A stretch of DNA of 30,412 bases from Bacteroidales bacterium (GTDB taxonomy: Bacteria; Bacteroidota; Bacteroidia; Bacteroidales; FEN-979), in contig JAFGNY010000234.1 of assembly GCA_016926765.1 (NCBI GenBank), positions 1 through 30,412 on the forward strand, written 5' to 3'. Of the stretch, positions 14,773 through 29,104 are shown one piece after another. The position numbers and the translations under genes are program-made. Within the stretch, counting starts at the first letter, position 1, and every line of letters starts with the position of its first letter. Below the pieces are notes generated by a model, which was not told the DNA's origin, did not search any database, and saw only the letters and a program-made list of their open reading frames with translations.

Positions 14773-16071
14773 ATGTCTGAACACCCCTTCCGACGTTTTC
14801 CCACACGTGTGGTCCCCATTGGCAACTTGCCCATGGGAGGCTCTTATCCTATCCGGGTACAGTCGATGACCAACACCGACACACAGGATACTGAGGGAAC
14901 TGTAGCACAGGCAATCCGGATGATTGAAGCCGGATGTGAATATGTCCGGATCTCCGTACCGGGAATGAAAGATGTGGAAACCCTTCGGAAAATCAAGAAG
15001 GAGATCCGGGATGCCGGATTCACTGCCCCGTTGATTGCCGACGTCCATTTCAAACCGAAAATCGCTGAAATCGCTGCCACGATCGTGGAAAAGGTGAGGA
15101 TCAACCCTGGAAACTACGTTTCAGGGTCAAGGGTCAAGGTTCAAGGGTCAAGGATGAAGGGTCCTGCAGGGACGAGGCATGCCTTGTCCGAGGGCCAAGG
15201 GTCAAGGATGAGCGAAACGAAATCCGGCATCCGGCATCCGGAATCCGGCATCCAGCATCCGGCATCCGGCATCCGGAATCCGGCATCTGACCAGCATTAT
15301 TTCGACGAAATCTCCACCCGACTGACTCCTTTGCTTAAAATCTGTAAGGATCATGGGACAGCAATCCGCATCGGCGTAAACCACGGCTCGCTTTCCGAAC
15401 GAATCATGGATCGGTTTGGAGATACACCGGAGGGGATGGTAGAGTCGGCACTGGAGTTCGCCCGAATCTGTGAAGAGCACGGTTTCCGAAACCTGGTATT
15501 GTCGCTCAAATCCTCCAACACCCGCGTGATGATCCTTGCCAACCGTTTGCTTGTGGAACGAATGAAAGAAGAAAGCATGGATTATCCCTTGCACCTGGGT
15601 GTTACCGAAGCAGGCGCAGGGGAAGACGGGCGGTTGAAATCTGCCGTGGGGATCGGCAGCCTGCTGGCCGACGGGATCGGTGATACAATCCGGGTTTCGA
15701 TCACTGAAGACCCGGAACACGAGATCCCGGTTGCTTACGGAATCCTCCAGGCCACAGGTGTCAGGATCACTCGCACCGAATACATCTCCTGCCCCTCCTG
15801 TGCCCGGACTCTTTTCGATATCCAGAAATCGGTTCAAACGATCAAGGAACGAACCGGACATCTTACCGGATTAAAAATCGCCGTCATGGGTTGTATCGTG
15901 AATGGTCCGGGTGAAATGGCTGATGCACATTATGGATATGTGGGCGCCGGAAAAGGAAAAGTCAACCTTTACAAAGGGCAGACTTTGGTCAAGAAAAATG
16001 TGGATGAATCGGTTGCCGTGGAAGCCTTGATTCACCTGATCAAAGAAAACGGGGAGTGGATAGAACTTTAA
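14773..16071 (+). CDS. ispG: (E)-4-hydroxy-3-methylbut-2-enyl-diphosphate synthase (flavodoxin), with a repeat-derived insertion
   Basis: PIRVQSMTNT, PLIADVHF, RINPGN, RIGVNHGSL, PLHLGVTEAG, GDTIRVS, CPSC...MGCIVNGPGE [4Fe-4S] ligands. Confidence 0.96.
   Translation: MSEHPFRRFPTRVVPIGNLPMGGSYPIRVQSMTNTDTQDTEGTVAQAIRMIEAGCEYVRISVPGMKDVETLRKIKKEIRDAGFTAPLIADVHFKPKIAEIAATIVEKVRINPGNYVSGSRVKVQGSRMKGPAGTRHALSEGQGSRMSETKSGIRHPESGIQHPASGIRNPASDQHYFDEISTRLTPLLKICKDHGTAIRIGVNHGSLSERIMDRFGDTPEGMVESALEFARICEEHGFRNLVLSLKSSNTRVMILANRLLVERMKEESMDYPLHLGVTEAGAGEDGRLKSAVGIGSLLADGIGDTIRVSITEDPEHEIPVAYGILQATGVRITRTEYISCPSCARTLFDIQKSVQTIKERTGHLTGLKIAVMGCIVNGPGEMADAHYGYVGAGKGKVNLYKGQTLVKKNVDESVAVEALIHLIKENGEWIEL
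15121..15290 (+). repeat. In-frame composite insertion in ispG: AGGGTCA array, REP palindrome, (C/A)ATCCGG array
   Basis: 6 AGGGTCA-like units at 15123-15164; GGACGAGGCATGCCTTGTCC at 15170-15189; 3 more units at 15191-15211; 10 (C/A)ATCCGG-like units at 15221-15290. Confidence 0.93.
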
Positions 16072-26180: not shown

Positions 26181-27371
26181 ATGCGAACCGTCAATGATTT
26201 CAACTTCCAGGATAAGCGGGCATTGATCCGTGTTGATTTTAATGTTCCCCTGGATGCCTCTTTCCAGATCACGGATACCACCCGGATTGACGCGGCGATC
26301 CCTACGATCGAAAAAATCCTGAATGATGGAGGTTCTGTGATCCTGATGTCGCACCTGGGCAGGCCAAAAAGCGGCCCTGAAGAGAAGTTTTCCCTGAAGC
26401 ATCTTCTTCCTTACCTTTCGGAAAAGCTGGGGCGACCGTTGAAGTTTGCTGACGACTGCATCGGCCCCTCCGCCGTTGAGCTATCGGCCACCCTGCAGCC
26501 CGGAGAGGTGTTACTGCTCGAGAACCTCCGGTTTTACAAAGAAGAGGAGAAGGGCGATGAAGGCTTTGCCCGTCAGTTGGCCGACCTTGGGGATGTCTAT
26601 GTCAACGATGCCTTTGGTACCGCTCACCGGGCACATGCCTCCACGGCTGTCATCGCGAAATTCTTTCCCGAAGCCAAACTGTTCGGCTTTGTGATGAGCA
26701 ATGAGATCCTCAACATCGACAAAGTATTAAAGGATACACCCCGTCCCTTTACCGCCATCCTTGGAGGGGCGAAAGTTTCGGGCAAGATCGAGATCATCAA
26801 CCAGCTGATGGACAAAGTCGACAATTTGTTGATCGGCGGCGGAATGATGTTCACTTTCATCAAGGCAATGGGCGGCGAAGTGGGCGCTTCCCTGGTGGAG
26901 GATGACCTGCTGGAGCTGGCAAAGAATACGGTGGAGGGGGCCAAGATGCTTGGGGTGAACCTCTATCTTCCACCGGATGCCATTGTTGCTGATGCATTCT
27001 CCAACGATGCCAATAAGAAGACCTGCAGCGCCTACGACATCCAGATCCCCTGGATGGGGCTTGATATCGGGCCGGCTACCTGCGATAAGTTCCGTCATGT
27101 TATCTCGAAATCAGCCGCCATCCTCTGGAACGGACCCATGGGCGTTTTTGAGATGAACCAGTTCGAAGCGGGGACCCGGTTCATCGCTGAAGCGGTTGCA
27201 GAAGCCACTTCCAACGGGGCGTTTACCCTGATCGGCGGAGGCGACTCGGTGGCAGCGATCAACAAATACGGGCTGGCCGATAAGGTCAGCTATGTCTCAA
27301 CCGGCGGAGGCGCCATGCTGGAATATATCGAAGGTAAAGAGCTGCCAGGCATCAAAGCCATCCTCGGGTGA
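26181..27371 (+). CDS. pgk: Phosphoglycerate kinase
   Basis: [60 protein letters not shown]. Confidence 0.98.
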
Positions 27372-28417
27372 CACGGATCCTTCTCAGCCGGACCGACCGT
27401 ATCGGAGATGTTGTTCTGACCCTCCCGCTAGCCGGTGTGCTGAAAAAATACCTGCCCCAAACCACCCTGCTTTTCCTGGGGAAAACTTACACGCGGCCTG
27501 TGATTGAAGCTTGCAGCTTTGTGGACGAGTTCATCGACTGGGATCTCCTTGCAGAGCTCCCCTACCGGGAACAGGTAGCAGCATTCAGGGCATTTCGCGC
27601 TGATGCGGTCATTCATGTGTTTATGAACCGAACGATCGCTAAGCTGGCCGATGCAGCCGACATTCCGGTGAAGGTCGGTTCTGCCCATCGCCTGTTCAGT
27701 TGGCTCTATTGCAACCAGGTGGTGTGGTTCAGCCGCCGTCATTCCGATCTGCACGAAGCTCAACTCAACCTGAAATTGTTAAAACCCCTTGGGATTGAAG
27801 TGATGCTGGAGAGGGAGAGGATCCCGGAATATTATGGATTGCAGGCAGATGCGCGATACGAGATACGCGATACGAGATACGCGATGCGCGATCCAGCATC
27901 CGATATCCGGAATCCGGAATCCGGAATCCGGGATCAGGAATCCCGGTTCCGTCTGATCCTCCACCCCAAATCCAAAGGCAGCGCCCGGGAGTGGGGGCTG
28001 GAGAACTTTTCCCGGCTGATTGAGCTACTTCCGCAAAATAAATTCAGCATCTATATCACAGGGACGAAAGCGGAAGGGGAACTGATGAAGGAGTTCCTGG
28101 AAAAACACCGGGAGCAGGTCACCGATAGGACCGGGAAGATGGATCTATCTGAACTGATGGAGTTTATCAACTCGTGCGACGGAATGGTGGCAGCCAGCAC
28201 CGGACCTCTCCATCTTGCTGCCGCTTCCGGGAAAGTCGCCATTGGCTTATATGCTCCCATGCGCCCGATCCATCCGGCCCGGTGGGCTCCTTTGGGTAAA
28301 AACGCATCCTATCTCGTGCTCGATAAACCCTGCAACGACTGTCGCAAGAACCTGGACTGTCACTGTATGAAGGAGATCAGGGCAGAGGAAGTCGTTGCCA
28401 TGCTCATGAATGATTGA
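27368..28417 (+). CDS. Glycosyltransferase family 9 (heptosyltransferase-like), with a repeat-derived linker
   Basis: Plus strand from GTG 27368 reads GTG ACA CGG ATC CTT CTC AGC = MTRILLS, overlapping the pgk stop (GTGA); [29 protein letters not shown]. The track's minus label is wrong. Confidence 0.92.
27848..27945 (+). repeat. In-frame array of 14 phase-locked heptamers in the GT9 gene
   Basis: GATGCGC GATACGA GATACGC GATACGA GATACGC GATGCGC GATCCAG CATCCGA TATCCGG AATCCGG AATCCGG AATCCGG GATCAGG AATCCCG. Confidence 0.93.
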
Positions 28418-28482
28418 TTCCCGGCTTCCCTTCCTGATGGTATCTCAACCGTAAATCCTCCTTCATACATCTACATTCTCCA

Positions 28483-28510
28483 TCGTACTTCGTAAATCGT
28501 ATTTCGTACT
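28483..28510. repeat. TCGTA-core heptamer array between convergent GT9 and cvpA genes
   Basis: TCGTACT TCGTAAA TCGTATT TCGTACT. Confidence 0.8.
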
Positions 28511-28597
28511 TCCAGGGTATCATTGTCATCCCAACGAGGGAGGGAAAGTGATGGTTGGTAAATGGAACAAGCAAATAGATACTATCTTTCTGAACCA

Positions 28598-29104
28598 TCA
28601 TTGAAACAGCTCCGGTACTCTGATCTCTGTTCCGGTCCAACGGATGATCGCCGGGAAAACGGCAGCAACAGGTTTGTAGAAGACAGACTCCTCTCTGACT
28701 TTTGTGGTGATCAGATGCCTGTCAGGGTCGGCAAGGTTGATGATATAAAAAATGACACTCAGGATCAGCACGCTTTTCACCAACCCGAGCAAACCGCCTG
28801 CCAGATGGTTTAAAAAACCTATCCCGATTACCGAAACCACTTTTTCGATCAGTTTCCCTACCAGCAGCACAGCGATCAGAACCGCCAGAAAAGTAACGGA
28901 AAAGGAGATCACCGGGAGGTAGGAAGAAGAGATGTCAAAGGCTGATTTCAGGATGCCGGAGGCGAAATGGGAAAAGTAGACCGCCGCATAGATCCCCAGG
29001 ATCAGGGCCACCAGCGTGGCCAGACTGATGATCAGCCCTTTGCGGAATCCAAGGATTACCATCAGCCCGGCAAACACCAGGATCACAATGTCGATGACCT
29101 GCAT
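28598..29104 (-). CDS. cvpA: CvpA family (colicin V production) membrane protein
   Basis: IDIVILV...GFRKGLI, four TM segments, LN.LAGGLLG.VKS..ILS, ES.FY. Confidence 0.88.
   Translation of the reverse strand: MQVIDIVILVFAGLMVILGFRKGLIISLATLVALILGIYAAVYFSHFASGILKSAFDISSSYLPVISFSVTFLAVLIAVLLVGKLIEKVVSVIGIGFLNHLAGGLLGLVKSVLILSVIFYIINLADPDRHLITTKVREESVFYKPVAAVFPAIIRWTGTEIRVPELFQ

Follow-up and report, generated by a model that had tools for sequence, protein, structure and literature searches.

The presence of a tandem heptanucleotide repeat inside the coding sequence of a glycosyltransferase gene raises the question of whether the repeat is a device for switching the gene on and off or, instead, a segment of different origin that the encoded protein tolerates. 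The repeat considered here lies at positions 27848-27945 of a 30,412-nucleotide stretch of DNA (hereafter, the window), which belongs to a 2.8-Mb, 405-contig, 70%-complete MAG of an uncultured sediment Bacteroidales bacterium (genome G000). An earlier interpretation made from the letters of the DNA (the sequence-only reading) had put forward the possibility of an ON/OFF switch for LPS glycosylation. The evidence collected below favours a different answer, to which we assign a probability of roughly three in four. Specifically, the array would be a translated heptanucleotide repeat mosaic whose product is the disordered tether joining the two Rossmann-like domains of a GT9 protein, and it would represent a slowly evolving by-product of a habit of the lineage.

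The heptamer array and the protein segment that it encodes

The array extends over 98 bp and is made up of 14 units, with a 7-bp register that is never lost. Starting from 27848, units 1-7 read GATGCGC, GATACGA, GATACGC, GATACGA, GATACGC, GATGCGC and GATCCAG, while units 8-14 read CATCCGA, TATCCGG, AATCCGG, AATCCGG, AATCCGG, GATCAGG and AATCCCG. Within the unit, the A and T of columns 2 and 3 are invariant in 14/14 cases, the C of column 5 is found in 13/14 and the G of column 6 in 12/14. This base-by-base listing bears out the earlier description of a run of heptamers that drifts from one unit to another in unbroken register, and the statistics agree with it. In particular, the lag-7 identity of 27848-27945 is 0.78, as against 0.25 +/- 0.045 in shuffled sequences (z 11.6), and it ranks first among the 4331 98-bp segments of the 30-kb window, with only the array in ispG coming near. 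Given this z value and TRF scores of 62-71, the array is longer than chance would lead one to expect.

TRF splits the array in two, at 27848-27892 with the unit GATACGC and at 27905-27943 with 5.6 copies of the unit ATCCGGA. Sub-array 1 (27848..27892, + strand; period 7, 6.4 copies) is composed of GATGCGC, GATACGA and GATACGC units, is also reported by TRF with a period of 14 (2.8 copies, 96% matches) and encodes 15 residues. Sub-array 2 (27890..27945, + strand) consists of eight units drifting to ATCCGGA, with AATCCGG present three times, shares its register with sub-array 1 and encodes 17 residues. The longest tract of perfect 7-bp periodicity (27905..27931, + strand) measures 27 bp, that is 3.9 units, in keeping with the earlier remark that no more than three adjacent units are identical, and it is the sole part of the array with appreciable potential for single-unit slippage. 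A perfect 14-bp-period tract of 34 bp is located at 27852..27885 (+ strand), and short-read contigs end in it: among the Logan contigs of samples X1 (the probable source) and X2 (its sister), one of 1283 bp terminates at 27885, within the array. Other short Logan contigs that match the array have different flanks and were assigned to loci elsewhere that contain similar units; contigs of this kind are the source of the two 'goes back 42/45' joints, which were discarded as uninformative for the GT9 array.

Two further heptamer arrays are found in the window. An array of 9.4 copies, (ATCCGGC/ATCCGGA)n, lies at 15222..15287 (+ strand), in frame within the ORF that the sequence-only reading named ispG, and the claim that the two arrays share a unit over a distance of 12.6 kb is true at the level of the unit family. 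A short and degenerate array of TCGTACT-like units occupies 28483..28512 (no strand assigned), in the spacer 3′ of the GT9 stop codon. As for secondary structure, the hairpin potential of the array is not significant (fold z -1.7 as DNA and -1.5 as RNA), a search of 27700-28650 returned no inverted repeat, and the window has no Rfam match. On these grounds, an association of the 27848 array with a hairpin, an RNA element or a REP sequence was ruled out, as was a palindromic in-frame insert resembling the Rickettsia palindromic elements.

The start of the array coincides with a codon boundary of the ORF at 27368-28417 (+ strand), which encodes a protein of 349 residues. Its assignment to the GT9 family of glycosyltransferases, already made from the sequence, is upheld by Pfam PF01075 (E 3e-21), with a score of 76.3 bits against a gathering cut-off of 22. 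The NCBIfam equivalogs for heptosyltransferases I, II and III reach 50-57 bits, far short of their cut-offs of 135-185, and a Pfam PBP1_XylR match was discarded, its 19 bits falling short of the cut-off of 27. An activity of the enzyme on LPS is no more than plausible. The gene is preceded by Wzy_C, polysaccharide deacetylase, GT2, CN_hydrolase and pgk genes, and followed by CvpA, ABC ATPase and MlaE genes; the pgk-GT9 pair and the neighbouring genes are syntenic in relatives. The GTG start of the GT9 gene overlaps the pgk stop codon (GTGA) at 27368-27371.

At the protein level, the array encodes residues about 161-193, which lead from the last helix of the N-domain to the first strand of the C-domain, and its in-frame translation immediately before LILHP agrees with that given earlier. 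The entire variable linker, as delimited by the orthologue alignment and by pLDDT, comprises codons 159-195 (27842..27952, + strand), between YYGL and LILHP. An AlphaFold2 model built on an alignment of 36 orthologues has a mean pLDDT of 87 and a pTM of 0.85, and its sole disordered segment, with pLDDT below 50, is at residues 163-190, flanked by a helix (149-155) and a strand (194-199). The best Foldseek matches of the model are 3TOV, WaaF (1PSW) and WaaC (2GT1/2H1H), with E values from 1e-19 to 1e-14 and a TM of about 0.7. The modelled structure thus supports the proposal that the array corresponds to the inter-domain linker of a GT-B enzyme.

The linker across orthologues and the tempo of its change

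In the 52 Bacteroidota loci taken from GTDB, HEAQLN and LIL are typically 159 nt apart, as compared with 210 nt in the window, and the distant orthologues of the phylum have a shorter, non-repetitive linker of about 20 residues with the pattern 'L..E....LID..KFNLIL'. Among closer metagenomic orthologues (55-81% identity) the stretch that follows YYG is hypervariable, ranging from 0 to about 90 residues, and it is often periodic every seven residues. The corresponding peptides can be traced back to triplets of heptamers, as IRHPASG is encoded by (ATCCGGC)3, IQHPASS by (ATCCAGC)3 and DTRYEIR by (GATACGA)3. In the representatives of the species of the genus, the linkers measure 84, 84, 93, 111, 126, 132, 177 and 180 bp, all of them multiples of 3, and each species has its own mosaic of heptamer arrays (units GATACGN, ATCCGGN, GGACGAG/AGGGTCG, CGAAACA, CGAAATA and ATCGCGA), in some cases with REP-like hairpins. 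Because the linkers of distant orthologues are shorter and non-repetitive, and the mosaics of the genus are species-specific, the alignment supports the earlier suggestion that the linker was built from repeats and is not an ancestral sequence. In other words, the comparison shows that a short ancestral linker has been replaced in the genus by species-specific in-frame mosaics, and the GT9 linker is, as judged from these alignments, a hot spot rebuilt in every species of the genus.

The REP-like hairpins of sister species were located in the GT9 linkers of L084:2010-2110 and of L108/L109/L111/L112. They belong to two types, CCCTAAAGGGGAC...GGGGAGGGG and TTGTCATTGCGAGGA...GCAA, which encode PKGDLLPP.. 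and VIARSEATKQ-like peptides, and such hairpins also occur in loops of NadE and DapF.

To estimate the tempo of change, the closest relatives are the most informative. Among 5.8 billion proteins, none is closer than 81% identity, and the nearest relative, L001 (81% amino-acid identity), a locus from another sample, has the same two sub-arrays with the same boundaries and 17 units instead of the 14 found here. The whole difference in length is accounted for by a single in-frame gap of 21 bp. Over the linker, 104/111 aligned bases are identical (94%), whereas the coding flanks are 84% identical in the N-domain and 78% in the C-domain; the 7 substitutions are divided between third codon positions (3) and first or second positions (4). 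Along the 7.2 kb that are syntenic with L001, the 200-bp segment at 27800 is the most conserved of 141, with 95% identity against a mean of 86.6% (sd 4.1). This conserved patch could reflect recombination or a constraint at the DNA level. The patch corresponds to 27788-27998 of the window and to L001:6421-6650, and is centred on the array; at third codon positions, identity amounts to 92% in the linker and 55-70% in the flanks. In the two closest pairs of orthologues, linker identity is 0.94 and 0.90, and that of the flanks 0.78-0.85. At a slightly larger distance, in L002 (76% amino-acid identity), different units stand in place of sub-array 2, and few parts are less conserved than the linker.

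Within eight clusters of orthologues at ≥90% identity, the length of the linker is constant. The largest cluster contains 12 distinct full-length sequences from tens of contigs, all of 377 residues and with an identical linker, and the differences of about 20 residues seen elsewhere in such clusters are due to alternative start calls. The one truncated orthologue, P0131, which starts immediately after the linker, was considered as an OFF allele and rejected: it has the usual number of repeats, and its truncation results from a C-to-A nonsense change combined with the end of a contig. On one metagenomic contig, at L083:140-145 (P0009 cluster), a C-to-A change creates a TAA stop inside the repeat-built GT9 linker; it may represent a null allele or, alternatively, an error of sequencing. 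Taken together, the relatives and clusters compared suggest that the array changes in rare, large and frame-preserving steps and that it would not be hypermutable.

The reliability of the array itself deserves consideration, as in a 405-contig, 70%-complete MAG, whose k-mer contigs break inside the array, a mis-join or a collapsed repeat might be suspected. Nevertheless, the reading frame is intact through the array, the independent assembly of L001 has the orthologous array with matching boundaries, and nine more assemblies of the genus carry in-frame repeat linkers at the GT9 site. The chance that the array is an assembly artefact is, as a consequence, close to nil.

These data bear directly on the proposed switch. 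According to the contingency-locus hypothesis, slippage in the tract would shift the frame, cut off the C-terminal nucleotide-sugar-binding domain and toggle surface glycosylation at high frequency. As far as the consequence alone is concerned, the gain or loss of one or two units would indeed put the C domain out of frame and eliminate it entirely. The class of the gene and the heptamer precedent fit as well: the case of Neisseria pglE, invoked by the sequence-only reading, was traced to a genic CAAACAC tract of 5-34 copies (PMC5953494), located like the present one in a glycosyltransferase ORF, where a change by one unit would likewise shift the frame, and the phase-variable tract of H. influenzae hmw, also with a 7-bp unit, is TGAAAGA(13-38) (PMC2651432). 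Furthermore, the dapF gene of a congener (see below) is frameshifted inside a heptamer array, an indication that changes by unit numbers other than multiples of three, or assembly errors, do happen at such arrays. However, the tracts of pglE and hmw are long, perfect and variable among strains, whereas that of the GT9 gene does not exceed 3.9 perfect units, lies in a mid-gene linker and is stable between relatives. Counting units in the nearest relative, in line with the earlier advice to use related assemblies, gave only the in-frame difference with L001, and no frame-shifting change was seen among the GT9 loci: 52/52 GTDB loci and all full-length loci of the genus are frame-consistent. In addition to the constant linker length in the clusters and to the mere 7 substitutions and one indel that separate the array from that of L001, like arrays are present in housekeeping genes, where an OFF state should be harmful. 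A contingency function of this array is accordingly very improbable, and the ON/OFF switch is the part of the original proposal that the comparison does not support.

Heptamer arrays across the genome and the genus

The array of the GT9 gene is far from isolated. With a TRF score of at least 40, genome G000 returned 223 rows of period 7 and 129 rows of period 8, and heptamers are the commonest TRF period of this genome (462/1501 rows), ATCCGGC (27 rows) and ATCCCGG (11 rows) being the commonest unit classes. After merging, about 206 period-7 arrays were obtained, about 69 of which are deep inside 56 ORFs as defined by a home-made model of ORFs and codon usage. Since 82% of the genome is deep coding sequence and 67% of the arrays fall in the remaining 18%, the arrays are depleted in genes, although many are found there. 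The 125 merged arrays of period 8, with units such as CTTGTCCG and GGTCACTC, are mostly intergenic as well, with 17 deep in ORFs and many at contig ends.

Of the ORFs that do contain heptamer arrays, all those tested against Pfam (20/20) carry domains, often on either side of the array, which thus frequently lies between domains. Among the 20 are DapF, NadE, an aconitase-family protein, a Mur ligase, RadA, a MiaB-like protein, a 2-oxoacid dehydrogenase E2, AnmK and PfkB. For example, the array of NadE is found between CN_hydrolase and NAD_synthase, and that of the E2 acyltransferase between the lipoyl and E3-binding domains. In 46/58 cases the peptide encoded by the sense strand is more hydrophilic than the antisense one (P 5e-5), and 47% of the residues of the peptides encoded by in-ORF arrays are R, G, S or P.

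The switch of unit without loss of phase, first noticed in the GT9 array, proved to be a tendency of the whole genome. Specifically, adjacent arrays of different unit are in register in 20 of the 39 pairs in which this can be decided, against 5.6 expected (P 5e-8), and the maintenance of the register between unlike neighbours indicates that they diverged in place. A search for abutting same-strand ORFs of G000 that might represent frameshifted arrays gave 49 candidates, which were set aside as being mostly co-directional neighbours with arrays in their spacers.

At the level of the genus, all 10 congeneric genomes searched contain the pattern (ATCCGGN)x2.9, with 3-57 matches each and none for the reversed control. 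Outside the genus, it is found in 2/14 other genera of the family, with one match each, and in 0/16 other families. Hot-spot behaviour is likewise shared by unrelated proteins, as the inter-domain linker of NadE contains IRHPASG-like remnants and REP hairpins in 11/11 species, and two loops of DapF behave across the genus like the NadE linker. In congener G007, the reading frame of dapF shifts within a (CAGTGGG)n array (L134:1387-1504), and the incoming frame contains a TAG; the copy represents either genuine slippage by a unit number other than a multiple of three or a misassembly of the repeat. A loss of mismatch repair was considered as the cause of the repeat habit of the genus and ruled out, as MutS and MutL, detected through the MutS_II and MutL_C domains, are present in 10/10 congeners. 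Neither MutS_II nor MutL_C was found in the 70%-complete MAG G000, an absence that is likely to reflect the incompleteness of the assembly.

The orientation bias towards hydrophilic peptides would agree with the idea that a long, hydrophilic and disordered linker is advantageous in itself, for example by giving freedom to GT-B domain closure or by extending reach at the membrane surface, with the arrays serving as raw material to tune its length and composition. Two further observations point the same way, as every member of the genus has a linker of 28-60 residues, compared with about 20 in distant orthologues, and linker conservation exceeds that of the flanks in the two closest pairs. On the other hand, both the sequence and the length of the linker are wholly different between species of the genus, the unrelated proteins NadE and DapF behave alike, and the spread of the L001 substitutions over all codon positions is unlike what a strong constraint on the peptide would leave. 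Selection for a longer tether is, on balance, quite unlikely.

Origin of the translated arrays and comparison with known repeats

The mechanism that best fits a translated mosaic arising as a by-product would operate as follows. Replication slippage of 7-bp units would create and alter the arrays, and new types of unit would arise by point mutation in place, followed by re-amplification; as the new units originate in place, neighbouring arrays would remain in register. Inside genes, selection would retain the versions that preserve the frame, with a net change that is a multiple of 3 bp, such as the 21-bp step with respect to L001. The arrays that survive in genes would then be those that are stop-free in the three phases, encode hydrophilic and disorder-friendly peptides and fall in loops or inter-domain linkers. 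A heptamer array encodes an identical 7-residue peptide in all three phases, so that only the strand, the absence of stops and the net length are subject to this filter. According to this mechanism, the GT9 linker would be a tolerant site, and the array would not be a device of the GT9 gene.

Two aspects of the data are not explained by slippage. The first is that a few unit families, ATCCGGN foremost, recur at dozens of unlinked loci throughout the genus; the second is that no 200-bp segment in the comparison with L001 is more conserved than the array patch, while a neutral linker should diverge faster than that. With these two aspects, a templated or maintained-element model stays possible. 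In one form of it, a templated process, such as gene conversion between copies or a dedicated enzyme, installs or homogenises the arrays, with the linker acting as a recurrent landing pad. The sharing of unit families that are specific to the genus by dozens of unlinked loci, the occupation of identical hot spots by REP-like hairpins and the unusual conservation of the array patch between the window and L001 would all be in line with such a process. Against it, unlike neighbouring arrays are usually in register and connected by stepwise intermediates, as predicted by divergence in place, the 27848 array has no defined ends, target duplications or flanking hairpin, and no candidate enzyme was identified. 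Templated installation at a landing pad is decidedly unlikely. The broader proposition that the heptamer arrays of the genus constitute a maintained class of dispersed elements, templated, held at the DNA level and repeatedly rebuilding the linkers of GT9, NadE, DapF, ispG and others, is unlikely too. If true, it would account for both the genus-specific recurrence of ATCCGGN and the conserved array patch.

Heptamer repeats as a kind are already known, and the present array is one of dozens of translated repeats in the genus. The long simple sequence repeats with units of 5-11 nt surveyed by Mrazek, Guo and Shah (2007), as outlined in PMC4679880 and PMC4692102, have mostly units divisible by three when they are coding. 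The arrays described here resemble them, as far as that outline goes, in extending far beyond chance, in their enrichment outside genes and in slippage as the proposed origin. They appear to differ from the repeats outlined there in that a third of the heptamer arrays is translated in frame as loops of conserved proteins, and in that they are short and degenerate, with several types of unit in one register. A second group of relevant cases comprises the STRR heptamers of cyanobacteria and the GGGNATC repeats of Xanthomonas and Nostoc (PMC4692102), which are described as largely intergenic, and the TAACTGA repeats of Beggiatoaceae, Cyanobacteria and some Bacteroidetes (PMC4679880), which are also described as largely intergenic and contain stops in the forward orientation. 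In common with them, the arrays of this genus comprise few unit families at tens to hundreds of loci, are lineage-specific and undergo turnover of length and sequence at sites shared between close relatives. Unlike them, they are made of ATCCGGN, GATACGN and other units that are stop-free and are read through as protein, and the associations of dispersed heptamer families with G-quadruplexes or start codons are inapplicable to the GT9 array.

The in-frame location recalls instead the Rickettsia palindromic elements (Ogata et al. 2000, 2002; PMC10969869), which are reported in outline to lie in frame in protein-coding genes. In the form in which these elements are summarized, the two cases have in common that metabolic genes unrelated to one another tolerate repetitive DNA in frame, at positions that the fold can accommodate. 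Those elements, according to the same summary, are palindromic, measure about 150 bp and encode a conserved peptide, whereas the GT9 array is tandem and has no significant hairpin potential. A search of the literature for translated heptamer arrays in Bacteroidales found no description.

For annotators and modellers, residues about 161-193 are best treated as a dispensable, lineage-specific tether, and phase-variable surface glycosylation should not be inferred from the GT9 repeat. More generally, the locus illustrates cleanly how 7-bp repeats, when in excess throughout a lineage, write new disordered segments into proteins, and it gives a measure of the tempo: no change in clusters at ≥90% identity, one step of 21 bp at 81% and full replacement between species.

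Two further features of the GT9 protein were observed outside the linker. Near the C terminus, the four cysteines C322, C325, C331 and C333 (CxxC...CxC; residues 322-333, window 28331-28366) are invariant in 36/36 orthologues, a pattern that suggests a metal site; we know of no description of such a site in the solved GT9 enzymes. In addition, a second insertion hot spot follows DWD (alignment columns 63-100, GT9 residues about 62-70), where the sequence of the window has no repeat and P0045, P0071, P0024 and P0054 carry heptamer-encoded repeats of the SSIQHPA type.
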